A stretch of DNA of 64,000 bases. It comes from Desulfuromonadales bacterium (GTDB taxonomy: Bacteria; Desulfobacterota; Desulfuromonadia; Desulfuromonadales; JAWOCM01). Location: positions 1-64,000 of the forward strand of contig JAWOCM010000091.1 of the NCBI GenBank assembly GCA_046483795.1. The letters are read 5' to 3'. Both the position numbers and the translations under genes were made by a program. The number at the start of each line of letters is the position of its first letter. Within the stretch, counting starts at the first letter, position 1. The notes under the pieces were generated by a model. That model did not search any database and was not told the origin of the DNA. It saw nothing but the letters and a program-made list of their open reading frames with translations. Below are positions 9,131 through 44,290 of the stretch, piece after piece.

Positions 9131-9202
9131 TATCAATCCCGTCAATCAAAGTTTAGCAGATCCGCACCATATGTGCAGTAAACCGTGGGAAAGGGGCCAT
9201 CC

Positions 9203-9451: not shown

Positions 9452-9499
9452 GAAACGCAATGAGCTAATCTGTGATGCTCTTCGCAAAAGCCCGGTGGA

Positions 9500-9625: not shown

Positions 9626-10012
9626 ATCGGTGGTCACTTCGAACTCGGGGGAATCGAGAATCGAGCGCTTGACCGCACACTGGTCTGTGGCCCGGATAAT
9701 CGCCTTCTTGTACTTCTCCGGAAATCCCGTCGGAAGAGTGATCCGCATTGCGACCCTGGAAGGCAGCCGCGTTTCCGGATCCCGCTCCATATCCACCGAC
9801 AGTTTCAGACCCTCGGTCTCGAGCTCGCGCTGATGGCAGAAGCGGAGAGCGAAAAATCCGGCGCAGGTCCCCATAGAGGCCAGGTAGAGATCGAACGGCG
9901 AAGGGGCGCTTCCTTCGCCGCCGTTTTCCTTCGGCTGATCGGTGCGAATGGTAAACCCGTCGACGCGGGCTTCGACAGCAACGCCGCCGGGAAAAGTGAT
10001 GTCCATAGACAT
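9623..10012 (-). CDS. OsmC family peroxiredoxin-like protein
   Basis: Track ORF 9623..10036. ATG 10012 has an AAGGAGA Shine-Dalgarno sequence at 5-nt spacing. OsmC signature: GSAPSPFDLYLASMGTCAG ... ATDQCAVKRSI. Confidence 0.85.
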   Translation of the reverse strand: MSMDITFPGGVAVEARVDGFTIRTDQPKENGGEGSAPSPFDLYLASMGTCAGFFALRFCHQRELETEGLKLSVDMERDPETRLPSRVAMRITLPTGFPEKYKKAIIRATDQCAVKRSILDSPEFEVTTD

Positions 10013-10199: not shown

Positions 10200-12245
<2,046 letters not shown>

Positions 12246-12270
12246 CGTTTCTAACTCTCTTACATCCCGT

Positions 12271-12334
12271 TAAAACAAAAGACAGCCGCGTCCGACCGGC
12301 CTGTCCCGGCCAATCTCATCCGGTATCGGACGCG
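12271..12334 (-). terminator. GC-rich hairpin + U-tract (terminator or attenuator) 26 nt upstream of the pcrA start
   Basis: On the minus strand, CGCGTCCGA(TA)CCGG ... CCGGTCGGACGCG is followed by GCTGTCTTTTGTTTTA. The stem is 13 bp with a 2-nt bulge. Confidence 0.55.
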
Positions 12335-12627
12335 CTGATCATATACCTGTTGCCGGCGGAGAAAAAGGCTTGATTTTATAATCCTGAACTTGCTATTTTA
12401 ACCGCCATGTTCCGATTAACTGTTGTCATAGTAGGTGTGGTGTGGGCGTCGTTGCTGCTTTTTTCCTGGAGCGGAGCTGTTGTTTCACCTCCGGCTCAGG
12501 AAAAAAGCAGCGCCGTTGATCGCCCACTGGCTCGCTAAGCTTTTCTGGAACCATACCGCCATGGTTCTCCCACGGATCCTCCCGAATCCCGACGTATGGG
12601 GCAAAATATCCTTTGATCCGCGTCTCT

Positions 12628-13551
12628 TCAAGGGGTTCCGCAACGACTTCCCTGCCGACTATCCCGCCGACGCAATTCATCATCGATCGCATTGAGCACT
12701 TCCCACTTGTTGCGCGACCATAAAGGCGCAAGCAGAAGGTCCCTGGGTCCGTCGCCGGTCAGACGGTGAATCTGGGTGTCGGGGTGCAGCCGTTCGAGAA
12801 AATCTGCAACCAGATCGACATATTCGGCCTGCTCCAGCATTTTCAGGCCGCCCTGCTCATAAATATCCCCCAGCGGCGTTCCCCGCAGGACGTGCAGCAG
12901 GTGAATTTTGATGCCGTCAACCCGCAGACGCGCCATCTCTTCGGCCGTTTCCAGCATCTGTGCCTTCGTCTCGCCGGGCAGGCCGATAATCACGTGAACG
13001 CAGACACGGATTCCCCTGGAGCGGACTCGGCGGAAAGCATCGGCAAAGGCCTGGTAGTCATGTCCGCGACGCAGAAAATCCAGCGTGCCGTCATGAATCG
13101 TCTGCAATCCCATTTCGAGCCAGAAGTCAGTGCGGCGATGGTATTCAGCGAGCAGATCGACGACGTCTTCGGCCAGGCAGTCGGGTCGGGTGCCGACGAA
13201 GAGGCCGACGACATCGGGAACACCGAGCGCTTCGTCGTAGAGACGACGCAACCGCTCCGGCGGCGCGAAAGTATTGGAGAAGGGCTGGAAATAAGCCATG
13301 AATCGCCGGGCCTTGTACTTGCGGGTCATAACCTCCTTGCCATGCTCGATCTGCGCGGTGATCGAAGCCCCGCGCTCGATCCCCACGGACCCGGATCCGC
13401 CGGGATCGCAGAACAGGCAGCCTCCACTGCCCTGCCGTCCGTTGCGGTTGGGGCAGCCGAAACCGGCATCGACGGAAATCTTGTGAATTCGCTCCCCGTA
13501 AATATTCTTGAGGGTCTGTGAAAAGACCTTGTAGCGTTTTTCGTTCATCAT
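12628..13551 (-). CDS. TIGR01212 family radical SAM protein
   Basis: 307 aa. The N-terminal pattern KISVDAGFGCPNRNGRQGSGGCLFCD is typical of the YhcC/TIGR01212 radical SAM family. Confidence 0.85.
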   Translation of the reverse strand: MMNEKRYKVFSQTLKNIYGERIHKISVDAGFGCPNRNGRQGSGGCLFCDPGGSGSVGIERGASITAQIEHGKEVMTRKYKARRFMAYFQPFSNTFAPPERLRRLYDEALGVPDVVGLFVGTRPDCLAEDVVDLLAEYHRRTDFWLEMGLQTIHDGTLDFLRRGHDYQAFADAFRRVRSRGIRVCVHVIIGLPGETKAQMLETAEEMARLRVDGIKIHLLHVLRGTPLGDIYEQGGLKMLEQAEYVDLVADFLERLHPDTQIHRLTGDGPRDLLLAPLWSRNKWEVLNAIDDELRRRDSRQGSRCGTP

Positions 13552-13684: not shown

Positions 13685-14065
13685 TCAGCTTTCTCCAAAA
13701 ATCTTCTTGCGATATTGCATCGGAGTGTCCCCTTCGAGTTTCTTGAAGGTGCGATGGAATTGCACCGTAGAGGTGAAACCGACTTTTTTGGCGATTTCGT
13801 GGATCGGATCGGGGGACGAATGGAGATGCTCCTTCGCCTTGTCGATTCGCAGCCAGTTGATCAGTTCAACGACCGTTCGCCCCGTTTCCTTTTTAAATTT
13901 GCGACACAGATGATGGTAGGAAAGTGACGAGTGCCTGGCAACTTCCTGCACACTGATCGAGGATTGGTAATTATCCTGCACATATTCAAGGGCCCGCTCG
14001 ATGCCCTCGCTCAACCCCTCCGTCCTGATCCAGGAGGATTCCGCCTTTTCTATATTTTGATTCAT
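13685..14065 (-). CDS. AraC family transcriptional regulator (HTH domain only, about 126 aa)
   Basis: Track ORF 13685..14104. ATG 14065 has an AAGGAG Shine-Dalgarno sequence at 7-nt spacing. Tandem HTH_18 pattern: ISVQEVARHSSLSYHHLCRKFKKETGRTVVELINWLRIDKAKEHL...IHEIAKKVGFTSTVQFHRTFKKLEGDTPMQYR. Confidence 0.75.
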   Translation of the reverse strand: MNQNIEKAESSWIRTEGLSEGIERALEYVQDNYQSSISVQEVARHSSLSYHHLCRKFKKETGRTVVELINWLRIDKAKEHLHSSPDPIHEIAKKVGFTSTVQFHRTFKKLEGDTPMQYRKKIFGES

Positions 14066-14350
14066 GGTCGCACTCCTTGGCTGTCTGAATCCTGAAAACC
14101 GCAACCAGTCTCTATAAACCGCTCAGCACTTTCAAAGACACATTGGGAAGGTGCCCCTGATTGTCACATGCGGCCTATTGATCCGAATATTTAATCAAAT
14201 AGCATACTTTATGCCAAGTTTTATCTGACAACCGGTGTAATTTGGGAAAATATGCTACCCTTTATTATAGTATAACACCTGCTATATATCATTCATGGGG
14301 AAAACAACCGGATTTTATTAATATATCGATAATGTCATCATCTCTTCGAG

Positions 14351-14378
14351 TTGCATAGAAGAACGGCCTTGCTATACT
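14351..14378 (+). promoter_or_regulatory. Sigma70-type promoter candidate for the REC/glucan operon
   Basis: TTGCAT (14351..14356), a 16-nt spacer, then TATACT (14373..14378). It sits at the edge of a 370-bp AT-rich gap, about 93 nt upstream of the REC start. Confidence 0.45.
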
Positions 14379-14470
14379 TGCCCCTACCGCATTCTGGGGG
14401 GAAAACCTCGCTTTTGATCTCCCCCTTCGTTGGCTTCAGAATCGAGAAAACAAAGGAGAAATCCGTTTTT

Positions 14471-14860
14471 ATGGCCGAACTTCTCGTTATTGATGATGAA
14501 CCGGATATCCGGGCGCTCTTTGCCGCCGAACTTGCAGATGAGGGGCATGAAGTGCAAACCGCGGGTGACATTGATGCAGCCTGGGCCTGTCTGGAGAAGC
14601 AGATTCCGGATCTTGTCGTTCTCGACATCCAGGTCGGGAAAGAGAACGGCCTTCTCTTCCTGCAGAAATTGTCCCGCCTCTATCCGCGCCTCCCGGTCGT
14701 TCTGTGCACGGCCTACAGTTGCTACAAGGACGACTTCTCCTCCTGGATCGCCGACGCCTATGTGGTCAAGAGTTCCGACCTCAACGCTTTGAAAAGCGAA
14801 GTCGCCCGTCAATTGCGCCGGCAAGCGGAAATGAAAAACGAAGAGAGGGGGACACGATGA
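14471..14860 (+). CDS. Single-domain response regulator (REC only)
   Basis: Track ORF 14351..14860. ATG 14471 gives MAELLVIDDEPDIRALF. The conserved DD, phospho-acceptor D (VVLDIQ), T (LCTAY) and K (VVKSS) are all present. The stop overlaps the next ATG (ATGA at 14857). Confidence 0.85.
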   Translation: MAELLVIDDEPDIRALFAAELADEGHEVQTAGDIDAAWACLEKQIPDLVVLDIQVGKENGLLFLQKLSRLYPRLPVVLCTAYSCYKDDFSSWIADAYVVKSSDLNALKSEVARQLRRQAEMKNEERGTR

Positions 14861-17373
14861 AAGCTGTTATCATGGCCGGCGGATTCGGCACCCGGATCCA
14901 GCCGCTGACCATCAACCTGCCCAAGCCGATGATTCCCCTGATAAACAAGCCGATCATGCTGCATATCATCGAGCTGCTCAAAAAGCACGGCATCACCGAT
15001 CTGGTGCTGCTTCTCTATCACCAGCCGATGAGCATCAAGAGTTACTTCCGCGACGGCAGCGACTTCGGAGTGAGCATCACCTATATCACACCGCTGGAGG
15101 ATTATGGAACCGCCGGAGCGGTCAAAGCCGCTGCCCAGCATCTCGATGAGCCGTTCCTGATCATCAGCGGCGACCTTCTCACCGATTTCGACCTTGGAAA
15201 GCTGGTGGATTTCCACCAGAGCAACAATGCACGGGCCACCATGACTCTCACCAGAGTTGCAGATCCATTGCAGTTCGGCGTCGTCATCACCGATACCGAC
15301 CACAAGGTCACCAAGTTCCTGGAAAAACCGGGCTGGGGAGAAGTTTTCTCGGACACCATCAACACCGGAATCTATCTTCTGGACCCGGAGGTGCTCGAGC
15401 TGATCCCCGAAGAAGAGAACAAAGACTGGTCGAAAGACATCTTTCCGATGATGCTCGAACAGGGCATGGACCTTTACGGCTGTTTGCTCGACGGCTACTG
15501 GCAGGATATCGGCAACCCCCAGGCCTACCTGGAAGCCTGCCGTGATGTCCTCACGGAAAAGGTCGATCTCGAGCTGGACGAGAAAAGAGAGCCGAGGGAC
15601 GACTGCCGGCTTCATTTGGGACACGACACCTTTCTGGCGCCTCCGGATCGGTTGCAGGGCACGGTCGTGATCGGAGAGAACAGCAACATCCTCGGACCGG
15701 TGCGTCTGTCCGACTGCGTGATCGGTCGCAACTGCGTCATCGAGGAGGGGGTCGAGCTTCAGGGAGCCATCCTCTGGGATAACGTCTACGTGAAAAAGGG
15801 CGCCCGTGTCGGCAATGCGGTCCTGTGCCACAACACAGGGGTGGGTGCCAAGGCCAGAATCGGCGACGGTGCGGTGATCGCCGACGAATCCCGGGTCGGA
15901 GACGATGCCGAAGTCAACAAGGGCATCCTTGTTTGGCCGCGCAAGGAGATCGAAGAAGGTGCGACGGTGACCACAAACGTCATCTGGGGCGAGAAGTGGC
16001 GCAAGAGCATTTTTGAAGGGGCGGTGGTCCGCGGCCTGAGCAACATGGAACTGACTCCCGAGTTTGCAGCCAAGCTGGGCGCCGCATTCGGCTCGACCCT
16101 GCCAAAAGATTCTGTCGTACTGGGCGGGCGCGATTCCTGCCGAGCCTCGCGGATGCTCAAGAGATCCTTCGTCGGCGGCCTGCTCTCCACCGGGATCAGT
16201 GTTCGCGACTGCAAGATGGTGCCTCTTCCGGTGATGACCTACAAGATGCAGACCTTCGGGGAGCTCGGTGGCGTCTACTTCCGTCAGTGTCCTGATGATC
16301 CGGCAACGACCGAAATCATCTTTTTCGACGACGAAGGGATGGAGATCTCCTCTTCGACCTCCAAGGGGATCGAACGGCTCTTCTTCAAGGAGAATTTCCG
16401 GCGGGCACACTACAACGAGCCCGGGACCATCCTTGAACTGCCCCAGTTGCATGACTTTTACCGCGACGGCTTTCTGCGCTCTCTGGAACAGGATCGCCTG
16501 CGGCAGGACAGACCGCGGGTGGTCATCGATCTCAACCACTCGCCCGCAGCCATGATCCTGCCCGCCCTTCTAGGCAGCCTCGGATTCCGTATGACCGAAC
16601 TCAACTCTTTTATCGACTCCAGTCGCTCCGAAGGAACTCCCAACGTCGAGAACCGGACTCTGGAGGAGCTTTCCCGGATCGTGGTGACTCTCGGCGCCCA
16701 GGCCGGTTTCTGGATCAGCCCCTCCGGAGACCGCCTTGTGGCTGTCGACGACACCGGCCGAATTCTGAGCGACCTCGACATGCTCGGCAGTTTGACCGCC
16801 CTGATCTGCCGACAATACGAGAAGGGGTCCCTGGCGTTGCCGGTATCAAGTCCGACAGTGGTCGAAGAGCTGGCGCAACCCGCAGGACTCGAGGTGGTGC
16901 GCACCCGACTCGACAATCGAGCCCTCCTTGAGAAGGCCCGGCGCCACGGCTGCCGCCTGTCCGCTTCCACTGACGGGCGTTTCGCCATTCCGCTCTTTCA
17001 GTACCATTTCGATGCCCTCTTTACCGTCGCCTATCTGCTGCAACTTCTGTCCGCAAGCGACATGTCCCTTTCCGAGGTCGTGGGTATCCTGCCGAAAAAA
17101 TCCTACCGTCACCTTAAGACGCCCTGTCCTCTCGACAGCAAGGGGAGGGTCATGCGCAAGATGACGGAGGCCGCAGCCGATAAGGATGCATCCTTCATCG
17201 ACGGTGTGAGGATTCAGTTCGAAAACAAATGGGTCCTGATTCTTCCCGACCCCTATCGACCCATTGTTCATGTTGTCGCCGAAGCGGGCGATGACGAAAC
17301 GGCATATGAACTGGCCCGGGATTATTGCAGCCGTGTCGACAACTGGAAAATCAGCGCTCTGCCGAACAGCTAG
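14857..17373 (+). CDS. Sugar-1-phosphate nucleotidyltransferase + left-handed beta-helix + phosphohexomutase-like domain fusion (838 aa)
   Basis: Track ORF 14704..17373; ATG 14857 is used. The N-terminus MKAVIMAGGFGTRIQPLTINLPKPMIPL and EKPGWGEVFSDTINTGIYLL are NTP-transferase motifs. Hexapeptide repeats span about residues 300-385. The C-terminal half aligns by eye to the PGM/PMM fold but lacks its catalytic motifs (see findings). Confidence 0.85.
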   Translation: MKAVIMAGGFGTRIQPLTINLPKPMIPLINKPIMLHIIELLKKHGITDLVLLLYHQPMSIKSYFRDGSDFGVSITYITPLEDYGTAGAVKAAAQHLDEPFLIISGDLLTDFDLGKLVDFHQSNNARATMTLTRVADPLQFGVVITDTDHKVTKFLEKPGWGEVFSDTINTGIYLLDPEVLELIPEEENKDWSKDIFPMMLEQGMDLYGCLLDGYWQDIGNPQAYLEACRDVLTEKVDLELDEKREPRDDCRLHLGHDTFLAPPDRLQGTVVIGENSNILGPVRLSDCVIGRNCVIEEGVELQGAILWDNVYVKKGARVGNAVLCHNTGVGAKARIGDGAVIADESRVGDDAEVNKGILVWPRKEIEEGATVTTNVIWGEKWRKSIFEGAVVRGLSNMELTPEFAAKLGAAFGSTLPKDSVVLGGRDSCRASRMLKRSFVGGLLSTGISVRDCKMVPLPVMTYKMQTFGELGGVYFRQCPDDPATTEIIFFDDEGMEISSSTSKGIERLFFKENFRRAHYNEPGTILELPQLHDFYRDGFLRSLEQDRLRQDRPRVVIDLNHSPAAMILPALLGSLGFRMTELNSFIDSSRSEGTPNVENRTLEELSRIVVTLGAQAGFWISPSGDRLVAVDDTGRILSDLDMLGSLTALICRQYEKGSLALPVSSPTVVEELAQPAGLEVVRTRLDNRALLEKARRHGCRLSASTDGRFAIPLFQYHFDALFTVAYLLQLLSASDMSLSEVVGILPKKSYRHLKTPCPLDSKGRVMRKMTEAAADKDASFIDGVRIQFENKWVLILPDPYRPIVHVVAEAGDDETAYELARDYCSRVDNWKISALPNS

Positions 17374-17397
17374 GACCCATCTGAAGGGAAGGAACCG

Positions 17398-20300
17398 ATG
17401 GCTCTTTCACCGCCGAACTCCGGAAGAAACAATGAGACAACATCTATGAGCGAACGTCATGTTTCAACAGAAAGCTATTTCCTGTACGATCTGCAACTTA
17501 ATGCCGCTTTCTGGCGTAACAACGCTGTCGCAGGGAGATTGCGCAGCTCTCCTCCACCGCCGCTGAATTACAGCCTGAACGCCATCGCGGAGGGGCTCTC
17601 CCCGCAGCTCGACACCCCCATAGAGACCGGAAACCTGGCTCTGTTGTCGGCTCTCAACGCGGTATTCAGGCATATCAGCTGGAGCTACCTGGCCGGCAGA
17701 GAGGTGAAGGTCGAGGGTGACCACCTGGTCATCGGCAAGAGAAGGCAACGCATCGATGGGCTTTTCGACTCTTTGAAAGCCTTTGTCGTTCACTTTCCTC
17801 CGGCCGCAGTGGTTACCGGCGAAACCGACGCAGAACACTTTTTTTCCGGAGGCAAGGCGACCGATCGCCAGACCGAGGCCCTGGTCCAGATGTTCGCTCT
17901 GGCGGTCCAGTCGCGCAATCCGGCCCTGGAAGAGGAGCGTCGGTTGATCGACGACGAAGCCTTTCAGAAACAGAGCGGATATCGCCTGATACTGGAGAGG
18001 ATCGACCGCCTGTTCGGGGCGGAAACATCCCCTTCGCCATTCAACCAGTCCCTTTCTGAACTCCTCAGTCAGCCTCTGCGCCATTCGCCGGATGACCTGG
18101 TGGGTCAGGTGGCCTATGTGCGCAGCCACTGGGGGCCCTTGCTTCCCGAGGGAGTGCTGAACCAGGTGCTGACCTCTTTCGACCTCTGGCAGGAAGAGCA
18201 ACAGATACGCGGCGCCGGGCCCGGCGGACCGGCACCGGTTCCGGACTACACAGAAGTCAGGGGAACCGAAATTCGAAGGTACAGCCCCGATGCGGACTGG
18301 ATGCCGAACGTCGTACTGATGGCCAAGTCGATCCAGGTCTGGCTCGATCAACTCTCCCGAAAATACCAGCTCCACCTGCGGCGTCTCGACGACATTCCCG
18401 ATGCGGAACTGGACCTGCTGAACCAGTGGAATATCACCGGCCTGTGGCTCATCGGTATATGGGAACGCTCCCGGGCCTCCCAACGCATCAAGCAGATGCG
18501 CGGCAATCCCGAGGCAGAAGCCTCCGCCTACTCGCTCTACGACTATGTCATCGCCGAGGAGCTGGGCGGCGAGGCGGCGCTTGACAATCTTCGCGAGAGG
18601 TGTTCCCGCCGAGGCATCCGCCTGGCCTGCGACATGGTGCCCAATCACACAGGCATCTGCTCACGCTGGATCGTGGAGCACCCCGACTGGTACATCCAGA
18701 CCGACATCCCCCCCTATCCCGGTTACCATTACACGGGGCCCGACCTGTGCGAAAAGGACGAGGTCAGCGTTTTTATCGAGGACGGCTACTGGGATCACAC
18801 CGAAGCGGCTGTGACATTCAAGCACGTGGATCACCGCACCGCCAAGGAGCGGTTCATCTATCACGGCAACGACGGGACGCACCTGCCCTGGAACGATACC
18901 GCGCAGCTCAACTTTCTGCTGCCGGACGTGCGGCAGGCGGTATTGGAAGAGATTGTCGACATCGCCCGGAGTTTTTCGATCATCCGCTTCGACGCCGCCA
19001 TGACCCTGGCAAAAAAACACTTTCAACGACTGTGGTATCCCCAGCCTGGAGGAGGTGCAGGGGTCCCCTCCCGTGCGGACTTCTGGATGAGCCGTCAGGA
19101 CTTCGAGCGTGCCTTTCCCGTGGAGTTCTGGCGCGAGGTGGTCGATCGCATCGCCGCCGAGGTCCCGGACACCCTTCTGCTCGCCGAGGCCTTCTGGCTG
19201 ATGGAGGGCTTTTTCGTGCGCACCGTGGGCATGCACCGGGTCTACAACAGCGCGTTCATGAACATGCTGAAAACGGAAGACAACGCGCGATATCGCAATC
19301 TCTTGAAAAACACCCTTGAGTTCGATCCGGAAATCCTCAAGCGGTTCGTCAACTTCATGAGCAATCCGGATGAAGAGACAGCGGTCGAGCAGTTCGGCAC
19401 CGGCGACAAGTATTTCGGCGTCGCCATACTCCTCGTCACCCTGCCGGGTTTGCCGATGTTCGCACACGGGCAGGTCGAGGGACTGCGCGAAAAATACGGC
19501 ATGGAATATCCACGGGCCTACTGGGATGAATCGGTCGACGAACCGCTGCTGCTGCACCACGAAAGGATGCTTTTCCCCTTGCTGGGCCGCCGGCCCCTGT
19601 TCAGCGAGGTCGAGAACTTCGCCCTCTTCGATTTTTACACAGCCGAGGGCGTCAACGAGGACGTCATCTCCTTCAGCAACCGCCTGGACGACCAGCGGGC
19701 CCTGGTCGTCTACCACAACCGCTACGGAGAGACCTCAGGCTGGATCCGAACAGCCTGGTCACCCGGGACGGACCAAAAAAGCGGGATGGAGAACGCAACA
19801 CTGGCCTCCGCACTCGCCCTGGGCAGCGACGAGACGATCTGGCGGTTCAAAGATCATTGCTCAGGCAAGAGCTACCTGCGTAAGGGGCGTCAATTCAACG
19901 AGGATGAGTTCTTTCTCCAGCTCGGTCCCTATGAAGCGTGTGTCTTTATCGACTTCGAACCGCTCGAGGATCCCGAAGGAGAGTGGCGGACGCTCTGGCG
20001 GGAACTTGACGGCCAGCCGGCAACCGATCTCGATCGACAACGCCAGAAGCTGCGTTACAGCAACCTGCACGCCGCCCTGGTGGATACCCTCGTGGCGATG
20101 GGGACGCCGGAGAGCCTCACCGTCAGACAGCTTGCACCGCTTGTTGAAGAGCTGGAGATGCAAACGGGGCGGGAAATTGATCTCAAAGCGCTCCTCTCCG
20201 CTCTTCAGCGGGATCTCGAGCGTCTACCTGCCGAGGAGCCGCGTTATCCGATGGCCATCGCCCCGCCGCTCGTTCTGCTGCGGCATCTCGATATCGGTTT

Positions 20301-20709
20301 CGATCTGGTTTCCGATCGATTCGACCGCCTCCTTCTGGAGGCCCCCCTGTTCGAATGGCTGGCAGAGCGCGACCTACCCGTGTCTACAGCCGAGGTTGAG
20401 CGCCTGGTCGGTCTGGTGCGCTCCCTGCTGTTGTGGCAGCAATGGCTCCAGCAGAAGACACCGGACGCAGCACTGCGCTCTCTGCTTGAAGAGCCCCAAA
20501 CAAGAACACTGATCGGCTGCAATCGTTTCAAAGACAATGTCTGGTTCAACCAGGAGAGCATGGAACTCCTGCTCAACGGCATGGAGATGGCAGCGGAAAT
20601 TTTCTACCCGCCAGCCGGGGCTGTTCCCCTCGTGAGCAAGATCGATCAATATCGCACCGCTTGCCACCAGTCGGGTTACAGTCTGGGAAAATTCTTGCGC
20701 CTCTTTTAA
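17398..20709 (+). CDS. Alpha-amylase family (GH13) glycoside hydrolase/transferase, 1103 aa
   Basis: GGAAGGAA Shine-Dalgarno sequence before ATG 17398. GH13 regions: I = ACDMVPNHTG; II = IIRFDAAMTL (nucleophile Asp); III = LLLAEAFW (acid/base Glu); IV = FMSNPDEE (Asp kept, His replaced by Pro). About 330 aa at the N-terminus and about 400 aa at the C-terminus are unassigned. Confidence 0.8.
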   Translation: MALSPPNSGRNNETTSMSERHVSTESYFLYDLQLNAAFWRNNAVAGRLRSSPPPPLNYSLNAIAEGLSPQLDTPIETGNLALLSALNAVFRHISWSYLAGREVKVEGDHLVIGKRRQRIDGLFDSLKAFVVHFPPAAVVTGETDAEHFFSGGKATDRQTEALVQMFALAVQSRNPALEEERRLIDDEAFQKQSGYRLILERIDRLFGAETSPSPFNQSLSELLSQPLRHSPDDLVGQVAYVRSHWGPLLPEGVLNQVLTSFDLWQEEQQIRGAGPGGPAPVPDYTEVRGTEIRRYSPDADWMPNVVLMAKSIQVWLDQLSRKYQLHLRRLDDIPDAELDLLNQWNITGLWLIGIWERSRASQRIKQMRGNPEAEASAYSLYDYVIAEELGGEAALDNLRERCSRRGIRLACDMVPNHTGICSRWIVEHPDWYIQTDIPPYPGYHYTGPDLCEKDEVSVFIEDGYWDHTEAAVTFKHVDHRTAKERFIYHGNDGTHLPWNDTAQLNFLLPDVRQAVLEEIVDIARSFSIIRFDAAMTLAKKHFQRLWYPQPGGGAGVPSRADFWMSRQDFERAFPVEFWREVVDRIAAEVPDTLLLAEAFWLMEGFFVRTVGMHRVYNSAFMNMLKTEDNARYRNLLKNTLEFDPEILKRFVNFMSNPDEETAVEQFGTGDKYFGVAILLVTLPGLPMFAHGQVEGLREKYGMEYPRAYWDESVDEPLLLHHERMLFPLLGRRPLFSEVENFALFDFYTAEGVNEDVISFSNRLDDQRALVVYHNRYGETSGWIRTAWSPGTDQKSGMENATLASALALGSDETIWRFKDHCSGKSYLRKGRQFNEDEFFLQLGPYEACVFIDFEPLEDPEGEWRTLWRELDGQPATDLDRQRQKLRYSNLHAALVDTLVAMGTPESLTVRQLAPLVEELEMQTGREIDLKALLSALQRDLERLPAEEPRYPMAIAPPLVLLRHLDIGFDLVSDRFDRLLLEAPLFEWLAERDLPVSTAEVERLVGLVRSLLLWQQWLQQKTPDAALRSLLEEPQTRTLIGCNRFKDNVWFNQESMELLLNGMEMAAEIFYPPAGAVPLVSKIDQYRTACHQSGYSLGKFLRLF

Positions 20710-20714
20710 AAACG

Positions 20715-20844
20715 ATGCCTTCGCAAAAAGTCATCTTTTACCACCAAGGCACCAAGGGCACCAAGAAAACATCACTAAGATTCAATGGGTTACCTTTGTG
20801 TCTTGGTGTCTTGGTGGTGGATTTTCGGTTTTTTGCGAGACCAT
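20715..20844 (-). repeat. Hairpin MITE-like element, family B (CACCAAGG words), full copy
   Basis: The reverse complement aligns end to end with 63560..63685 (ATGG.CTCGCAAAAAA.CC..AATCCACCACCAAGACACCAAG.CACAAAG ... TTCTTGGTGCCCTTGGTGCCTT.GTGGT ... TTTTT.CGA). It fills the gap between the GH13 stop and the glgA start. Confidence 0.85.
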
Positions 20845-20860
20845 CATGGAGCGGCAGTCG

Positions 20861-22405
20861 ATGAAAATTCTTATCATAGCCCCGGAAGTCACTCCTTTTG
20901 CCAAGAGCGGCGGTCTTGCCGACGTCGCCGGCAGCCTGCCCTGCGCCCTCAAGAAGCGCGGCCATGACGTGCGCATCGTCATGCCATACTATCGCTCCAT
21001 CGCCGAAAGCGAATTTTCCGCACCGAGAAGCGGTCGGCGAATGACCGTTCTGGTCGAAGAGCAACCCTGTGAGGGGCACCTGCGGACTCTCGACCACGGA
21101 GGGATTCCCGTTCATTTCATCGACAATCCCTTCTTTTTCGATCGCCCCGGCCTTTACGGCGATGCTGCCGGCGACTATCCGGACAACGCTGCACGCTTCG
21201 GTTTTTTTTGTCGAGCTGTCCTGCACATGCTTCGAGGCCTTGACTGGAGTCCTGAAATCCTCCACCTCAACGACTGGCAAACCGCCCTGATACCGGTCCT
21301 GCTGAAGAACGAACTGGAGGGGGAGCCGTTCTACAACGCCATGGCGACAGTGATGACTATCCACAACCTCGGTTACCAGGGAAACTTTCCGCCGACAGTG
21401 CTCAAGACTCTCGGCCTTGATCGAGCACTCTACACCACCGACGGGCTGGAATTTTATCACCAGGTTTCTCTTCTCAAAGGCGGCATCCTCTTTGCCGATC
21501 TGCTGACTACTGTCAGCGAAACCTACTGCCGCGAAATCCAGACTCCGGCGATGGGGCACGGCTTCGACGGCATTCTGAGAAGCCGGCGGGAGAAGCTTTT
21601 CGGTGTCATCAACGGCCTCGATACCGAGCTGTGGAATCCCTCCGGCGACCCGGCTTTACCACAACCCTACTCGGTCGACTCTCTGGCGGGAAAAGCAGAG
21701 GACAAGTCGGCCCTCCAGGAAGAACTCGGTCTGGACATTCAGCCCGGGATCCCCATTCTGGCCGTTATCTCCCGGCTCGACCGGCAAAAAGGAATGGATC
21801 TGATCCTGGAGGTCTGGGAAGAACTGATGCTGAGAAAGGTCCAGTTCGTGCTGCTCGGCACAGGAGATCCGAAACTGATGCAAGCTTTCTCCCTTTGCAC
21901 AAAGGACCATGCCCGGCAGGCCTCCATCAATCTGGAGTTCGACGAGGCCCTCTCCCGCAGAATTTATGCCGGCGCAGACATGCTGCTCGTTCCCAGCCGC
22001 TACGAGCCGTGCGGTCTGGCCCAGCTGATTGCACTGCGATATGGAACCGTCCCCCTTGTGCGCAGAACCGGCGGACTCGCCGATACCATCACCGACGTTG
22101 CCGTCGATCCTGAAAAGGGCAACGGCTTTACTTTTGACATGCTGACGGGGGAGAATATGCTTGACGCCATCGACCGTGCTCTGGAACTCTATCGGGACGA
22201 GGTGCGATGGAAGGACGTCATGCGCCGGGGCATGAACGCCGATCACTCGTGGGACCGTTCGGCCCTCGAGTACGAACGACTTTACGGAACAGCTCTGGAG
22301 AATCGACGTGAACAAGACGAACAAGGAACAGCCGCAGGAGGAAGAGGAAGAGGAAGAGGAAGAGGAAGAGGAAGCGGAGACATCCCGTTTCCCGGAACTC
22401 GATGA
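20861..22405 (+). CDS. glgA: Glycogen (starch) synthase GlgA
   Basis: Track ORF 20798..22405. ATG 20861 follows GGAGCGG. The canonical N-terminus is MKILIIAPEVTPFAKSGGLADVAGSLP. The last about 30 aa (EQDEQGTAAGGRGRGRGRGRGSGDIPFPGTR) are a low-complexity tail produced by reading the GAGGAA repeat. Confidence 0.9.
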   Translation: MKILIIAPEVTPFAKSGGLADVAGSLPCALKKRGHDVRIVMPYYRSIAESEFSAPRSGRRMTVLVEEQPCEGHLRTLDHGGIPVHFIDNPFFFDRPGLYGDAAGDYPDNAARFGFFCRAVLHMLRGLDWSPEILHLNDWQTALIPVLLKNELEGEPFYNAMATVMTIHNLGYQGNFPPTVLKTLGLDRALYTTDGLEFYHQVSLLKGGILFADLLTTVSETYCREIQTPAMGHGFDGILRSRREKLFGVINGLDTELWNPSGDPALPQPYSVDSLAGKAEDKSALQEELGLDIQPGIPILAVISRLDRQKGMDLILEVWEELMLRKVQFVLLGTGDPKLMQAFSLCTKDHARQASINLEFDEALSRRIYAGADMLLVPSRYEPCGLAQLIALRYGTVPLVRRTGGLADTITDVAVDPEKGNGFTFDMLTGENMLDAIDRALELYRDEVRWKDVMRRGMNADHSWDRSALEYERLYGTALENRREQDEQGTAAGGRGRGRGRGRGSGDIPFPGTR

Positions 22406-22538
22406 ACTGCAGGCGGAAATCCAGAAACGCATTCACGACAATGAAAGGTTTCTGGAGCGCTTCCTGGATGAAAACCACCAGGATGAAGACGAGATCGATG
22501 ACGGTGCGGAAGACGAGGGGACTTTCGAAGAGTTGTAG
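22308..22538 (+). CDS. Small highly acidic protein with poly-Glu tract (76 aa), hypothetical
   Basis: GTG 22308 is preceded by GGAGAA at 5-nt spacing. Sequence: MNKTNKEQPQ-(E)12-AETSRFPELDELQAEIQKRIHDNERFLERFLDENHQDEDEIDDGAEDEGTFEEL. The non-overlapping 3' two-thirds looks like a genuine amphipathic acidic helix. The first 98 nt overlap glgA. Confidence 0.45.
   Translation: MNKTNKEQPQEEEEEEEEEEEEAETSRFPELDELQAEIQKRIHDNERFLERFLDENHQDEDEIDDGAEDEGTFEEL
22338..22373 (+). repeat. (GAGGAA)x6 hexanucleotide microsatellite
   Basis: Six perfect tandem GAGGAA units. They read as (Glu)12 in the small-ORF frame and as (Arg-Gly)n in the glgA frame. Confidence 0.95.
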
Positions 22539-22588: not shown

Positions 22589-22882
22589 TCAATCTTTCAG
22601 GGAGTCCAGATATTCGGCCCACTCCGTGGGAAGAAGGTGCTTTTTTTTGGTGTTGCATTCCTTGCAGGCCGGCACACAATTTCCGCGGGTCGATTTTCCG
22701 CCCCGTGTCACGGGAACGACATGGTCGAGGGTCAACTCCCCGGGCGGAACATTAGCTCCACAATAGTGGCAGAGACCTCTGGCGATGCGATTCTTCCACC
22801 AGTTGCTCTTGCGCAGTTCCCTGGCCTTCTCGCGCTGGCGCCTGATCTCCTCTTCATCCGGCTCGATAAAAATGCTGTTCAC
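22589..22882 (-). CDS. HNH endonuclease family protein (97 aa)
   Basis: Track ORF 22589..22966. I prefer the in-frame GTG at 22882 because a perfect GGAGG precedes it at 4-nt spacing. HNH motif: CHYCGANVPPGELTLDHVVPVTRGGKSTRGNCVPACKECNTKK. Confidence 0.8.
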   Translation of the reverse strand: MNSIFIEPDEEEIRRQREKARELRKSNWWKNRIARGLCHYCGANVPPGELTLDHVVPVTRGGKSTRGNCVPACKECNTKKKHLLPTEWAEYLDSLKD

Positions 22883-23037
22883 AATTCCTCCTTTTTTTGC
22901 ATTATAAAACAGGCAGGATCGCCGGACAACCTTCCCGTGCTTGCACTGATTTGGAAAATGTGCCATATATCTGCCGTCGCGTCACTGCAAGGAGGGGATA
23001 ATTTGCCCGCTACAAGAATGAAAGATCGGTTGCCGTC

Positions 23038-24393
23038 ATGAAAATACTGGTTGTCGGAGGCGGACAGGTCGGACACTTCCTGTGCGAGCGGCTCTCTACA
23101 GAAGGGCACGAAGTCGTGCTCATCGACAAGTCGGGCGACCGGCTCAAAGATATCGAGGACCGTCTCAACATCCTGGGAGTTCACGGCAACGGAGCCAGCG
23201 CCGAGGTCCTGGAGCAGGCGGACATCAAGTCGGTCGATATTTTCATCGCCGTGACCGACATGGACGAGATCAACATCATGGCGTGCCTGATCGCACGCGA
23301 GTACAAGATCAAGACTCTGGTCGCCCGCGTCAAGAGCATCGAATACTCCGGCGAAAGCGCTGTACTGTCCAAGGAAAAGCTCGGCATCGACCTGCTCATC
23401 AATCCCGATGACGCTGTAGCCGACGAAATTGTCAAGATCGCCTGCCGCACCGGCTCCTTCGACGTGGCGGAATTCGTCGAGGGCCAGATCCAGTTCATCG
23501 GCTACCGTATCGCTCCCGACAGCCCTCTTTGCGACCTGACTCTCAAGGAACTGGGCGATCTTCACGGCATGTATCGCTTCATCGTGACGGCGATCAGCCG
23601 CAAGGGGCAAACCATCATTCCCCGGGGCGACGATACCATTCAGGCCGGGGACAGCATCTTTATTTTCGCCCACCAGCAGGATCTGCCCGCCATCCAGTAT
23701 CTTCTGCGACAGGAGCAGAGCAAGCAGCGGCGTCATCCAAGAGCGTTCATACTGGGCGGCGGAAGCATCGGTCTGCGCATTGCCGACCAGCTGGAAAAGA
23801 TGGGCTTCGAAGTCCGTCTGGTCGAGCGCGACCTCAAGCGATGCGAATCCCTGGCCGCCAAACTGAAAAAAACGATAGTTCTCCGAACCGAGGGAACCGA
23901 TATCCGCACCCTGATCGACGAAGGGGTCAAAGAGGCGGAAGTCTTTATCGCTGTCACCGACAACGACGAAACCAATATTCTTTCATCGCTTCTCTGCAAG
24001 AAGTATGGCGCCAAACGGACTCTTGCCCTGATCAACCAGCCCGAGTTTCTCCAGCTGGCGCCCGAGCTCGGTATCGACGCCTGCATTTCTCCTCGCCTTG
24101 CGGCAGCCGGCGCCATCCTCAAGTACGTCCGACGCGGCGAGGTCATCTCCATGGCGGCCGTCGAGGGCAGCGACGCGGAGGTCATCGAATTTCAGGTCAA
24201 AAAGGGAAGCCGGGGCGAAGGCATTCAATTAAAGGATCTGAATTTTCCTTCCGGAGCGATTATCGGCGCTATCGTTCGCGAAGGCGGCTACGAGATCCCC
24301 ACCGGCGAAAGCCGCCTGAAAAGCGGTGATCGGGTGGTCGTTTTTGCACAGCCCAAAGCCCTGCCCAAGGTCGAAAGTTTTTTCCCCCGATGA
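23038..24393 (+). CDS. trkA: Trk system potassium uptake protein TrkA
   Basis: 451 aa with two RCK/NAD-binding halves (MKILVVGGGQVGHFL... and AFILGGGSIGLRIA...). The stop overlaps the trkH start. Confidence 0.9.
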   Translation: MKILVVGGGQVGHFLCERLSTEGHEVVLIDKSGDRLKDIEDRLNILGVHGNGASAEVLEQADIKSVDIFIAVTDMDEINIMACLIAREYKIKTLVARVKSIEYSGESAVLSKEKLGIDLLINPDDAVADEIVKIACRTGSFDVAEFVEGQIQFIGYRIAPDSPLCDLTLKELGDLHGMYRFIVTAISRKGQTIIPRGDDTIQAGDSIFIFAHQQDLPAIQYLLRQEQSKQRRHPRAFILGGGSIGLRIADQLEKMGFEVRLVERDLKRCESLAAKLKKTIVLRTEGTDIRTLIDEGVKEAEVFIAVTDNDETNILSSLLCKKYGAKRTLALINQPEFLQLAPELGIDACISPRLAAAGAILKYVRRGEVISMAAVEGSDAEVIEFQVKKGSRGEGIQLKDLNFPSGAIIGAIVREGGYEIPTGESRLKSGDRVVVFAQPKALPKVESFFPR

Positions 24394-25835
24394 ATATTTT
24401 CCAGACCCTGCGCATTCTCGGGGCTCTGCTCGTGCATCTCTCCGGGGCCCTTCTCGTTCCCATCGCCTTTTCCCTCTATTTCGAGGACGGCGCCTGGCTC
24501 TCTTTCGTCTACTCGTCCGCTGTGACTCTGGCTGTAGGGCTTGTTCTGTTCAAGGGATTCAGAAGCAAGAACACCGATCTGGGCATCCGGGAAGGCTTTG
24601 CCGTTGTAACCCTGGGCTGGACTTCTTTCGCTCTCTTCGGTTCGCTCCCTTATATTTTCTCCGGGGCCATCCCCTTCCCGGTCGACGCCCTGTTCGAAAC
24701 GATGAGCGGCTTCACCACGACCGGGGCCACCATTCTCACCTCGATCGAAACCCTTCCTCCAAGTGTGCTCTTCTGGCGCGCCATGACCCATTGGCTGGGC
24801 GGGATGGGAATTATCGTCCTGTCACTGGCCATCTTGCCGATGCTCGGCGTTGGGGGAATGCAGATGTTCAAGGCGGAAGTACCCGGCCCGACAACCGATC
24901 GACTTCGCCCGCGCATCCAGGATACCGCCAAGCTGCTCTGGGGTGTCTACGTCACCCTGACCGCCGCGGAGACGATCCTGCTGATGTTCGGCGGCATGAG
25001 CTTTTTCGATGCTATCTGTCATTCTTTCGCGACTCTCGCCACCGGAGGCTTTTCCACCCGGGATGCATCGATCGGCGCCTACGACAGTGCCTATATAGAC
25101 TGGGTGGTCACCTTTTTCATGTTTGCCGCCGGCGTTAATTTTTCGCTCCACTTTTACGCCCTTCGCGGACGCATCAGGGGGTACTTCCGGAACGAAGAGT
25201 TCCGCTTCTACCTGAGCCTCACTCTGGGGGCGGTCGCGGTGTTGATGTTTCTCAACCACGGCACAGTCTACGCCTCTTTTCTCGATAATCTTCGCTACAG
25301 CGCCTTTCAGGCGGCCTCGATCCTGACGACCACCGGCTTTGGCACCGCCGATTACGAACTGTGGCCGGTATTGGGCCAGTACATCCTCGTGACTCTGATG
25401 TTCGTCGGCGGCTGTGCCGGATCCACAAGCGGCGGCATGAAAGTCGCCCGGATCATGATGCTGTTCAAATACGCCCACGTACAGGTTTTCCGCCTGATCC
25501 ATCCACGCGCCGTCCGGCTGGTCAAGCTCGGCGGCAATCCCGTCGACAGAGATGTTGTTCAGGCCATTCTCGGTTTTTTCGCCCTTTTCATGGGCATCTT
25601 TCTTTTCGCCTCGTTCCTGATGGCCGCCGTCGGAATGGACCTGATCTCCGCAGGAGCCTCGGTCATCGCCACCCTCAGCAACATCGGTCCGGGGCTGGGC
25701 TCGGTCGGCCCGGTGGACAACTACCAGCACGTACCGGCACTGGGCAAGTGCGTACTGACCTTCTGCATGCTCATGGGTCGACTCGAGCTGTTTACGGTGC
25801 TGGTTCTGTTTTTCCCCTCCTTCTGGCGCAAGTAA
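24390..25835 (+). CDS. trkH: TrkH family potassium transporter
   Basis: 481-aa polytopic membrane protein with TrkH selectivity-type motifs (SGFTTTGAT, ATGGFS, TTTGFGT, STSGGMKV). Confidence 0.9.
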   Translation: MNIFQTLRILGALLVHLSGALLVPIAFSLYFEDGAWLSFVYSSAVTLAVGLVLFKGFRSKNTDLGIREGFAVVTLGWTSFALFGSLPYIFSGAIPFPVDALFETMSGFTTTGATILTSIETLPPSVLFWRAMTHWLGGMGIIVLSLAILPMLGVGGMQMFKAEVPGPTTDRLRPRIQDTAKLLWGVYVTLTAAETILLMFGGMSFFDAICHSFATLATGGFSTRDASIGAYDSAYIDWVVTFFMFAAGVNFSLHFYALRGRIRGYFRNEEFRFYLSLTLGAVAVLMFLNHGTVYASFLDNLRYSAFQAASILTTTGFGTADYELWPVLGQYILVTLMFVGGCAGSTSGGMKVARIMMLFKYAHVQVFRLIHPRAVRLVKLGGNPVDRDVVQAILGFFALFMGIFLFASFLMAAVGMDLISAGASVIATLSNIGPGLGSVGPVDNYQHVPALGKCVLTFCMLMGRLELFTVLVLFFPSFWRK

Positions 25836-25855
25836 AGACCATCTTTTGATGTATA

Positions 25856-26716
25856 ATGACCTCCATGAAAACGTTTCTCGGCGGTTTTCTTTTCGCTTTG
25901 CTTTTCTTCTCCGGCGTCGGACGAGCATACTGCGCTATGGAATACCAGTTCGTCTATTTTCCCGCACGCACCATTGATGCAACCCCGGAAGATTACGGTC
26001 TCGACTTCGAGGACATCCGGTTCGAGGCGGACGACGGAACGTCACTGCATGGCTGGTTCCTGCCCGGCGAACCGCATCAGCCCCTGGTGCTCTTCTGCCA
26101 CGGCAATGCCGGGAACATCTCCCACCGCATCGACAATCTCCGGAAGCTTCATCACCTCGGGGTCGGCGTCTTTATTTTCGATTATCGCGGCTACGGCCGC
26201 AGCGAAGGGCGCGCTTCAGAAGAAGGGACTTACGACGACGCCCGCGGAGCCCTTTCCTGGCTGCGCTCCAGGGGATGGTCTACCGAGAAACTGGTCTATT
26301 TCGGCCGCTCGCTCGGAGCCTCGGTCGCCTTGCAACTGGCAGTCGAGGAACCGCCGGCCGCAGTCGTCCTCGAATCCGCCTTTACCTCGATCCGGGCCCT
26401 CGGATGGCGCCACAACCCGATTCTGACCTTCCTGCTCGGCTGGCTGCTGGATGCCCGGTACGACAACGCGGATAAAATAAAGAAACTCCGCTCCCCCCTC
26501 CTGTTTATTCATGGCGGCGAAGACACCATCGTGCCTCCGGATATGGGACGCCGGCTGTTCGATATGGCACCCGAGCCGAAACATTTTTTCCTGCGGCCCG
26601 AGGCGGACCACAACACCCCTCTGCCCCCGACCGGAGCACCCTACTGGCAGGCCTGGCGGAATTTTCTCGACGGAGCAGTCACCACGACAAAAAGCCCGCT
26701 CCCTGAGAAAGGTTGA
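25856..26716 (+). CDS. Alpha/beta hydrolase
   Basis: 286 aa with an N-terminal membrane/signal segment, the motif HGNAGNISHR, a nucleophile elbow (GRSLGA), and late IHGGEDTIVP and His (EADHN). Confidence 0.8.
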   Translation: MTSMKTFLGGFLFALLFFSGVGRAYCAMEYQFVYFPARTIDATPEDYGLDFEDIRFEADDGTSLHGWFLPGEPHQPLVLFCHGNAGNISHRIDNLRKLHHLGVGVFIFDYRGYGRSEGRASEEGTYDDARGALSWLRSRGWSTEKLVYFGRSLGASVALQLAVEEPPAAVVLESAFTSIRALGWRHNPILTFLLGWLLDARYDNADKIKKLRSPLLFIHGGEDTIVPPDMGRRLFDMAPEPKHFFLRPEADHNTPLPPTGAPYWQAWRNFLDGAVTTTKSPLPEKG

Positions 26717-27223: not shown

Positions 27224-28018
27224 TCAGGCGGTCACGACGAATCCCATCTGCCGGCCGGTCGAACCGCCATCGCGTCGATAGGAGAAAAAAAGCTCCTTGT
27301 GGCAGCAGGTGCACTCCTCCACCGCCTCGGTGCGGGCCGGGTCAAGGCCGGAATCGCGCAACTGAAGCTGGCAGCTCAACCGCAAATCGAGAAACCACTT
27401 TCCCAGGCTTCGCTCCTTCGCGATACGCTGCCAGTGATCGGTCCCGCTTCGGAAAGCTTCGCGAACCGGACGGTCGACTTCGTATTTGTGCGCACCGATG
27501 CCGGGACCGATGGCCGCATACAGATTTTCGATCTTCACCCCGAAGTTTTTCTCCATGGTCCGGACCGTTTTGGCGAGAATCCCTTCGGCCGCACCACGCC
27601 AGCCCACATGCACCACCGCGTAAACCTTTTTTTCGGGATCGAAGAGGATCACCGGATAACAGTCAGCCACCAGGATTCCGATCATGATGCCCGGCTGATC
27701 TGTCACCACGGCGTCGCATTCCACGCCCAGGAAATGCGTCAGATCGGGATTGGACTCGTCAATGACGAGAACGTTTGTATCGTGAACCTGTTTGACGGTG
27801 AGAAGCAGATGGACGGGCAAACCGAAGGCCCGGGTAAGAGTCGACCGGTTCCCCTCGACATTGGAGCTCGCATCATCGGTATTGAACGCCAGATTGAGCG
27901 AATTGTAGGGCGGTCGGCTCACTCCCCCGTTCCGGGTGGTAAAGCCTGCAGAGAGTTCGAAACGGTCCGCCCAGCTCGGCTGCTTGTAACTTATTTTGCC
28001 TTGTCTGACGAGTTTCAT
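27224..28018 (-). CDS. pgeF: Peptidoglycan editing factor PgeF (YfiH/DUF152 laccase-domain protein)
   Basis: Track ORF 27224..28054. ATG 28018 overlaps the rluD stop (ATGA). Motifs: DAVVTDQPG, LVADCYPV, HVGWRG, CTCC...FFSYRRDG. Confidence 0.85.
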   Translation of the reverse strand: MKLVRQGKISYKQPSWADRFELSAGFTTRNGGVSRPPYNSLNLAFNTDDASSNVEGNRSTLTRAFGLPVHLLLTVKQVHDTNVLVIDESNPDLTHFLGVECDAVVTDQPGIMIGILVADCYPVILFDPEKKVYAVVHVGWRGAAEGILAKTVRTMEKNFGVKIENLYAAIGPGIGAHKYEVDRPVREAFRSGTDHWQRIAKERSLGKWFLDLRLSCQLQLRDSGLDPARTEAVEECTCCHKELFFSYRRDGGSTGRQMGFVVTA

Positions 28019-44278: not shown

Positions 44279-44290
44279 ATTTCCGGGTTT

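Follow-up and report, generated by a model that had tools for sequence, protein, structure and literature searches.

A probable alpha-glucan synthesis cluster of Desulfuromonadales with a stand-alone receiver, a pyrophosphorylase fused to a degenerate phosphohexomutase-like module, and a divergent GH13 protein

The window analysed here is a 64-kb stretch of DNA that corresponds approximately to one entire contig of a Desulfuromonadales metagenome-assembled genome (MAG), and it carries at positions 14471-22538, on the plus strand, the run of five genes that is the subject of this study. The genes encode, in order, a protein consisting of a receiver (REC) domain, a fusion of a sugar-nucleotide pyrophosphorylase-like half with a phosphoglucomutase/phosphomannomutase (PGM/PMM)-like half, a very large protein of family GH13 (the GH13 giant), the GT5 enzyme GlgA, and a small acidic protein. 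Based on their domain content and on the gene neighbourhoods of their homologues, the cluster is probably a cytoplasmic alpha-1,4-glucan (glycogen-type) synthesis operon that is typical of Desulfuromonadales/Geobacter relatives, with roles for the single parts that are proposed below. The order of the five genes had been given in a preliminary description of the region, and the gene calls and the Pfam and NCBIfam matches agree with it. The genes and their parts are located as follows.

14471-14860 (+): REC-only protein, 129 amino acids (aa), PF00072 alone
14857-17373 (+): fusion protein, 838 aa, with NTP_transferase at residues 2-232, LbH at 264-353 and PGM_PMM I/II/III at 386-742
14857-15948 (+): N-terminal half of the fusion, NTP_transferase (residues 1-232) plus left-handed beta-helix (264-364)
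16012-17373 (+): C-terminal half of the fusion, PGM/PMM-like with degenerate active-site motifs
17398-20709 (+): GH13 giant, 1103 aa, Pfam Alpha-amylase only over residues 338-431
20846 or 20861 to 22405 (+): glgA (GT5), TIGR02095
22308-22538 (+): small acidic protein, 76 aa, GTG start, GGAGA 8 nucleotides (nt) upstream
22338-22378 (+): (GAGGAA)x6.8 tandem repeat, poly-Glu in the frame of the small open reading frame (ORF), (Gly-Arg)n in the glgA frame

The genes are closely packed. An AGGAG is found 12 nt upstream of the REC ATG, the ATG of the fusion overlaps the TGA of REC in an ATGA at 14857-14860, and gaps of 24 nt and 136-151 nt separate the fusion from the GH13 giant and the GH13 giant from glgA. 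In order to part inheritance from function, all cluster proteins were mapped onto 80 genomic loci collected around homologues of the GH13 giant and onto 80 metagenomic loci collected around homologues of the fusion, the relatives being seen as loci with 10-kb flanks. The motif counts for the fusion refer to 120 database homologues, searched by regular expression, and to 70 metagenome fusions, which were aligned and read by eye; those for the GH13 giant refer to an alignment of 61 sequences, and its joining to GlgA was counted among its 120 closest homologues. The REC counts refer to 44 orthologues located beside fusions at least 50% identical to that of the window.

The N-terminal ~370 residues of the fusion are, as judged by sequence, a VTC1/GMPPB-like sugar-1-phosphate nucleotidylyltransferase. 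This half matches PF00483 (E 6e-55) and PF25084 (E 7e-21), and all 120 database homologues of the fusion retain the GGxGTR and FLEKPGWGE motifs. The closest PDB matches of residues 1-367 are mannose-1-phosphate guanylyltransferases and a UTP-glucose-1-phosphate uridylyltransferase, at similar E values of 1e-52 to 1e-56. The mannose-1-phosphate guanylyltransferase model NF052502 scores 252.5 bits, below its cut-off of 440, and the glgC models TIGR02091 (117.3 bits versus 424.9) and NF003670 (120.5 versus 470) also remain below theirs; because of these sub-threshold scores, and because the uridylyltransferase is an almost equal match, no specificity is transferable to the fusion. The gene context favours glucose as the donor sugar. 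Many related clusters contain a GalT-like gene (in locus L001 at 8843-9871, and in many of the loci L08x-L12x) whose nearest PDB entries are 1z84/2h39 (E 6e-58) and not classical GalT. We take 1z84/2h39 to be the Arabidopsis ADP-glucose phosphorylase, At5g18200, and the presence of this gene is suggestive of ADP-glucose chemistry.

The C-terminal ~450 residues of the fusion align over their full length with two archaeal PGM/PMM structures, 9du5 and 1wqa (chain residues 8-441; E 1e-50 to 1e-52). PF02878, PF02879 and PF02880 are matched, and the Pfam domain IV model is unmatched, though the alignment spans all four domains. The four signature loops of the phosphohexomutases are replaced in the window.

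Phosphoserine loop: canonical TASHNP, window FRQCPD
Mg2+ loop: canonical DGDADR, window SPSGDR
Sugar loop: canonical GEENGG, window STDGRF
Phosphate loop: canonical RASGTEP, window PDPYRP

Canonical phosphohexomutase motifs were present in 0/120 of the database homologues and in 0/70 of the metagenome fusions. The phosphoserine position is occupied by Ser in 103, Ala in 13 and Cys in 4 of the 120, Cys being the residue found in the window. The replacement motifs are themselves conserved, as FRQSPEDPA, GPSGER and LPDQHRP; in the Mg loop of close homologues, the five leading positions of GPSGER are kept in 116 (G), 118 (P), 118 (S), 120 (G) and 118 (E) of 120 sequences, followed by R in 79 and K in 38. 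A distant subgroup of fusions, 38-43% identical to that of the window, keeps a GE..GG-like sugar loop and lacks the phosphate loop. Since all four loops are replaced in every homologue examined, a mutase role of this half is very unlikely, and since they are conserved as new patterns, the module is under selection. It may serve as a regulatory, ligand-binding or docking module. No pseudo-mutase fused to a pyrophosphorylase was found in our literature searches.

The REC protein matches PF00072 (E 3e-19) over residues 5-111 and no further Pfam domain, and thus has no output domain. Its acidic pocket and phospho-acceptor (D8, D9 and D52) do not vary among the 44 orthologues, T80 is found in 31/44, and the lysine of a VVKS motif is conserved. 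Among these orthologues, surface conservation is highest in A.S.YK.DFS.WLAD.YVVKS, a patch of the alpha4-beta5-alpha5 region, the face that receivers commonly use for contact with their partners. The REC gene is located directly upstream of the fusion in 44/45 loci that have a fusion at least 50% identical to that of the window and for which upstream DNA is present; it is missing in 29/30 loci of the distant fusion subgroup. This distribution argues for a specific and lineage-restricted link between receiver and fusion. With the phospho-acceptor intact and an output domain lacking, control through protein contact is a plausible and natural reading of the receiver.

The GH13 giant is matched by PF00128 with 31 bits (cut-off 22), and Pfam covers only residues 338-431 of its 1103, in agreement with the large unassigned flanks reported for it before. 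Residues D412, N416 and H417 of region I, the nucleophile motif R530-F-D532, the acid/base E597 and N656-P-D658-E are invariant in the 61 aligned sequences, the His of region IV being replaced (NPDE). We propose that the protein is a catalytically competent but very divergent member of the alpha-amylase family. Its AlphaFold2 model (predicted local distance difference test score, pLDDT, 82) comprises an N-terminal helical part (~24-270), a (beta/alpha)8 barrel with a beta-sandwich C-domain (~300-860) and a C-terminal helical part (~860-1103). Foldseek retrieved GH13 structures at E 1e-10 to 1e-12 and 12-16% identity, among them neopullulanase/TVAII, small alpha-amylases, GlgE and TreS; the N-terminal domain, modelled alone (pLDDT 89), had no significant PDB match in the fold search. 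No signal peptide was seen on reading the sequence. Assignment to a GH13 subfamily or specificity was tried and rejected, since the family profile matches PDB entries in region I only and fold matches at such identities do not discriminate.

A further invariant stretch, Lys-Lys-His...Gln-Arg-Leu-Trp...Gly-x-Gly-x-Gly-x-Pro-Ser-Arg, follows the nucleophile (residues 530-559, window 18985-19074) and is modelled as a flexible loop with pLDDT below 50. This Gly-rich loop might bind an anion or a phosphate.

Among the 120 closest homologues of the GH13 giant, 16 are single polypeptides in which a short basic linker joins the C-terminus of the giant to a full-length GlgA; a fused form occurs, for example, in Desulfuromonas versatilis. 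These fused proteins measure 1616-1646 aa, approximately the sum of giant and GlgA, which leaves no room for an extra domain. Because this single-polypeptide fusion is recurrent, the GH13 giant probably works together with GlgA, in a reaction that could be transglycosylation, primer handling, branching or trimming. The GH13-giant family comprises at least 592 species representatives, found in Desulfuromonadales, Geobacter, Nitrospira, Anaerolineae, Hydrogenedentota, Calditrichota, Ignavibacteria, Zixibacteria, Chlamydiota, Asgard archaea and Bathyarchaeia, and we know of no characterised member. De novo clustering of the neighbours outside Desulfuromonadales revealed no universal partner, only sporadic alpha-glucan partners. 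In three Promethearchaeota/Hermodarchaeota MAGs (L022, L074 and L076), separate PGM-like and NTP-transferase genes flank the GH13 giant on the opposite strand, and in a member of the Anaerolineales (L073) GlgA and an NTP-transferase come after the GH13 giant; the functional trio thus recurs outside Desulfuromonadales as separate genes.

The glgA gene is well supported, with 574.3 bits for TIGR02095 (cut-off 328.45), E 9e-86 for PF08323 and the KxGGL motif present in the translation as FAKSGGLADV. Its last ~30 codons encode a non-homologous Gly/Arg tail; homologues stop ~30 codons earlier. The overlap of 98 nt between glgA and the small ORF (22308-22405) arises because glgA does not have the stop of its homologues and continues across the GAGGAA repeat. 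Since repeat units of six nucleotides leave the reading frame unchanged, the tail is either a real C-terminal extension or the result of an upstream point or indel error in the MAG assembly.

The small acidic protein has no Pfam, NCBIfam or PDB match. A word-indexed homologue search returned 6 matches only, and an exhaustive search of 1.84 billion protein representatives was needed to recover 40 representative clusters of 62-124 aa, in most of which the match reaches the C-terminal EEL. The core of the family is formed by the C-terminal 50 residues, RFPELxELQxEIxRRIRDNxRFLERFxDEDF followed by an acidic stretch and (F)EEL at the end, and in the window the conserved part reads RFPELDELQAEIQKRIHDNERFLERF...FEEL. 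The protein is encoded downstream of glgA in ~16/22 close loci, including Geobacter-type clusters that do not have the GH13 giant, and is a genuine, narrowly distributed family tied to glgA. It had been described as a poly-Glu mini-protein; a conserved small protein does follow glgA, but the poly-Glu run, encoded by the (GAGGAA)x6.8 repeat, is specific to the window.

The organization of the cluster is conserved in relatives. In Syntrophotalea (Pelobacter) carbinolica DSM 2380 the order is UvrD - radical SAM - REC - fusion - GH57 - GalT-like - GH13 giant - glgA - 75-aa protein - HNH. The REC-fusion pair is also carried by Desulfuromonas versatilis and by Geoalkalibacter and Geobacter species. 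Downstream of close fusions, GalT-like-GH13-GlgA, GH57-GalT-like-GH13-GlgA, GH57-GalT-like-GlgA, GH57-GlgA or GlgA alone were found; the genes following the fusion are almost always alpha-glucan genes. Several loci of the distant fusion subgroup have GH57, GalT-like and GlgA genes in altered order (L134, L148, L159 and L161), the order being reversed in L161. This recurrence of alpha-glucan linkage across divergent fusion subgroups, with the rearrangement in L161, speaks for the pyrophosphorylase and glucan synthesis being functionally linked. Together with the REC-fusion adjacency and the GH13-GlgA fusions, it supports the proposal of the preliminary description that these genes form an alpha-glucan cluster. 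A lack of conserved order in relatives, which that description named as a ground for refuting its proposal, is not what the loci show. GH57 is often present in the clusters of relatives and is found in neither the window nor L082, L086 and L103. The nearest structures to the GH57 gene of relatives are 8zyi and 9iht, deposited under the generic name 'Glycoside hydrolase family 57 N-terminal domain-containing protein'.

Searching the window by tblastn with the cluster proteins, and with GH57 and GalT-like proteins taken from a relative, revealed no other gene for an NTP-transferase or a GH13 protein and none for a GH57 or GalT-like protein, and glgC, glgB and glgP were not found in Pfam scans of all other window ORFs of at least 400 aa. 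The earlier statement that GlgC and GlgB are lacking thus agrees with both searches and reaches as far as the contig, since the window is approximately one entire MAG contig. Judged by the models and motifs described above, the cluster itself has no member that qualifies as GlgC, GlgB or an active PGM.

These features can be combined into the following scheme for the glucan synthesis operon that we favour. The N-terminal half of the fusion, whose enzyme class is evident from its domains and motifs, would convert glucose-1-phosphate into a nucleoside diphosphate (NDP)-glucose donor, with sugar and nucleotide suggested by the context. The PGM-like half, which has lost its catalytic motifs, would have a regulatory, ligand-sensing or docking role. 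REC, phosphorylated by an unlinked kinase, would modulate the pyrophosphorylase by direct contact, and the supply of donor would come under two-component control, instead of or atop a GlgC-style allostery. GlgA, as assigned by its family, would polymerise the glucan, the GH13 giant, linked to it by recurrent gene fusion, would act physically with it on the growing chain, and the small acidic protein would be a conserved GlgA-associated accessory factor. A more detailed version can be entertained only tentatively, and we regard it as possible rather than likely: phosphorylated REC would dock on this non-GlgC pyrophosphorylase, the dead mutase domain would act as a sugar-phosphate sensor or platform, and GlgA would form a complex with the small acidic protein and with a new GH13 clade (novel N-terminal fold, NPDE region IV, Gly-rich loop) performing a glucan processing other than classical branching.

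Several observations weigh against the synthesis operon and its proposed control. The top named matches of the fusion are mannose-1-phosphate guanylyltransferases, and NCBI and JGI annotate it likewise. The housekeeping flanks (UvrD, radical SAM and HNH) are shared with S. carbinolica, and since these unrelated genes are also syntenic, part of the conservation of gene order is plain vertical inheritance. In most phyla the GH13 giant occurs alone or with sporadic alpha-glucan neighbours. No kinase adjoins REC, the nearest HisKA/HATPase genes being located at 53665-56621, ~31 kb away, and the contact between REC and fusion draws its support from gene adjacency. The translational coupling that had been suggested for this pair is based on a real ATGA overlap, but only 4/44 loci share it; in the others, REC and fusion are separated by gaps of 9-310 nt. 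As Ser is retained at the PGM-loop position in 103/120 homologues, a non-canonical activity of the PGM-like half is conceivable. Finally, the presence of glgC, glgB and a true PGM was judged at the level of the contig, and the whole case is built on the comparison of sequences and structure models.

Three other explanations were weighed. The cluster might be a self-contained glycogen pathway, as the preliminary description implied, in which PGM and GlgC are replaced by the fusion, acting as a bifunctional mutase and pyrophosphorylase, and GlgB is replaced by the GH13 giant, acting as a branching enzyme. The domain order of the fusion would suit a channel from glucose-6-phosphate via glucose-1-phosphate to NDP-glucose, no glgB or glgC is found in the window, the fusion of the GH13 giant to GlgA is what would be expected of a branching partner, and a GH57 candidate for branching is lacking from the clusters of the window, L082, L086 and L103. 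We consider this explanation unlikely nonetheless, and the term self-contained overstated, as neither an active mutase nor a recognisable branching enzyme is present. The loops for Ser, Mg, sugar and phosphate are all missing, with the mutase motifs lost in every homologue examined, including two of the three Mg ligands, and the phosphoserine position being Cys here and Ala in 13/120. The role of branching enzyme for the GH13 giant likewise finds no specific support: the protein has neither CBM48 nor an NCBIfam glgB match, no branching enzyme was among its top 50 Foldseek matches or its profile matches against PDB, and many relatives have a GH57 gene beside it.

The other two explanations concern the product. 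The GH13 giant could act on a linear alpha-1,4-glucan made by the cluster and yield a product different from glycogen, for instance a solute of the trehalose type, a glucan that is cyclic or rearranged, or a product of phosphorolysis. This would be comparable to the route from GlgA to TreY/TreZ in Pseudomonas; a 2024 review of prokaryotic alpha-glucan enzymes provides the precedent for such a GlgA-to-trehalose route. The GH13 giant does not resemble branching enzymes, its fold neighbours include TreS and GlgE, and, besides the unusual NPDE in region IV, it shows the invariant Gly-rich loop with Ser-Arg beside the nucleophile. We hold this conversion to be rather improbable, because TreY and other equivalog models give negligible scores for the giant (e.g. 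17.8 bits for TIGR02401, cut-off 499), TreZ, Mak and GlgE partners are absent from the cluster, and the family occurs in many phyla with no GlgA nearby. More doubtful still is that the fusion provides GDP-mannose, or another NDP-sugar, for the envelope, an exopolysaccharide or a compatible solute, its position next to glgA being inherited synteny. Its top NCBIfam match (mannose-1-phosphate guanylyltransferase), its VTC1-type top PDB matches, the database names mannose-1-phosphate guanylyltransferase/phosphomannomutase and the synteny of unrelated flanking genes would fit such a function, but the NCBIfam score of 252 falls short of the cut-off of 440 and the UTP-glucose-1-phosphate uridylyltransferase is nearly equal. 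Furthermore, the fusion stays linked to GlgA, GH57 and the ADP-glucose-phosphorylase-like gene in subgroups of only ~40% identity and in rearranged order, and the cluster contains no mannosyltransferase or exopolysaccharide gene.

The features of the region upstream of REC are the following.

14105-14470: upstream gap, 366 nt, AT-rich, holds the promoter candidate
14242-14271 (+): sigma70-like promoter candidate TTGGGA-18-TATAGT, consensus match only, 9/12 positions

The gap had been said to be AT-rich and to carry a good sigma70 promoter. The G+C content of 31-34% at 14200-14350, versus ~57% for the window, and the presence of the site agree with this, but to call it good is generous at 9/12 positions. 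Matches to a sigma54 -24/-12 pattern were no commoner than chance, with none in the leader, and an unremarkable promoter in this gap is plausible. No leader riboswitch or small RNA was matched when the entire window, including the ~200-nt leader, was scanned with Rfam, and a terminator scan found no convincing terminator after the small ORF.

Divergent from the promoter gap is a gene for a 139-aa AraC-family protein comprising the HTH_18 part only (13685-14104, -); no such gene is found between the radical SAM gene and REC in the annotated S. carbinolica locus (L001), and the protein could be a local regulator or the product of a truncated gene. Convergent to the cluster is an HNH endonuclease gene (22589-22966, -; 125 aa, PF01844) with a weak match to the HNH region of Cas9d/IscB. 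Its position after glgA or the small ORF recurs in S. carbinolica and in 9 or more further loci of Desulfuromonadales, including L033, L082, L083, L086, L087, L091, L102 and L103, and the gene is absent from Geobacter-type clusters. Genes for a UvrD/PcrA helicase, an MnmL/YtqA radical SAM protein, a RluD-like pseudouridine synthase and DegP/HtrA (10200-13551 and 28015-30813) are syntenic with S. carbinolica. The block of trkA-trkH and an alpha/beta hydrolase gene at 23038-26716 has no counterpart among the annotated L001 genes there and looks like an insertion. Further downstream, a lactate-utilisation block at 39800-47272 encodes a CCG/4Fe-4S protein, a FAD-linked oxidase, an L-lactate permease and a 718-aa LUD-domain/4Fe-4S/CCG fusion, and is followed by a gene for a Na+/H+ exchanger family transporter with a C-terminal PTS EIIA-2 domain (47391-49091, -). 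The ORFs at 50748-52043 (+, 431 aa) and 57350-58924 (+, 524 aa) match no Pfam family at E <= 1e-5.

Control of bacterial glycogen synthesis by allostery of GlgC is textbook knowledge. If the more detailed version of the scheme is correct, storage-glucan synthesis would be controlled in these bacteria by a mechanism undescribed for any glycogen pathway. In a lineage that matters for metal reduction and for electroactive biofilms, the donor appears to be formed by a different enzyme, one that carries a pseudo-enzyme domain and is wired into a two-component system. The recurrence of the GH13-GlgA fusion provides a concrete functional hypothesis for a large GH13 family that has no close solved structure, and the cluster yields a clean new small-protein family. 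Literature searches with locus tags and with the topics Geobacter/Pelobacter glycogen, ADP-glucose, GH13 fusions and glgC retrieved no paper on the cluster. In the available part of the 2024 review, response regulators, ADP-glucose phosphorylase and fusions of this kind are unmentioned, and the pairing of a receiver with a sugar-nucleotide enzyme is undescribed.

Compared with the classical GlgC-GlgA(-GlgB) systems of the glgBXCAP type, the cluster shares a pyrophosphorylase built from an N-terminal Rossmann-like domain and a left-handed beta-helix at the C-terminus, a GT5 GlgA after it, and a GH13 protein within the operon. It differs in that its pyrophosphorylase is not a GlgC equivalog and has an extra dead PGM-like module and a receiver partner, its GH13 protein is not GlgB-like, and neither glgP nor glgX is found in the cluster. 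The closest sequence relatives of the pyrophosphorylase half, with the same two-domain build, are the VTC1/GMPPB-type and archaeal broad-specificity nucleotidylyltransferases (8yre, 7x8j, 7whr, 8x7s and 5z09); these are stand-alone enzymes of 360-400 aa, whereas the window protein has a fused PGM-like module and a receiver partner. The ADP-glucose phosphorylase At5g18200 is matched by the GalT-like gene of related clusters, a gene absent from the window. With the alpha-D-phosphohexomutases (1wqa, 9du5), the PGM-like half shares the four-domain fold and differs in all four functional loops. REC resembles the single-domain response regulators of the CheY/DivK/CpdR type in being a receiver-only protein with the canonical Asp pocket, and it has a weak NCBIfam match to a DVU0259/DivK-like family, but its presumed target is an enzyme of sugar-nucleotide metabolism. 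The fungal alpha-1,3-glucan synthase Ags1/Mok1 is a single polypeptide that combines a GH13 domain with a GT5 domain C-terminal to it and ends in a multi-pass membrane domain. The same arrangement, GH13 N-terminal to GT5, is found in 16/120 homologues of the GH13 giant; in this comparison, which we draw from general knowledge, the bacterial proteins are predicted to be cytoplasmic and to lack a membrane-export domain, and in the window the GH13 giant and GlgA are encoded by separate genes.

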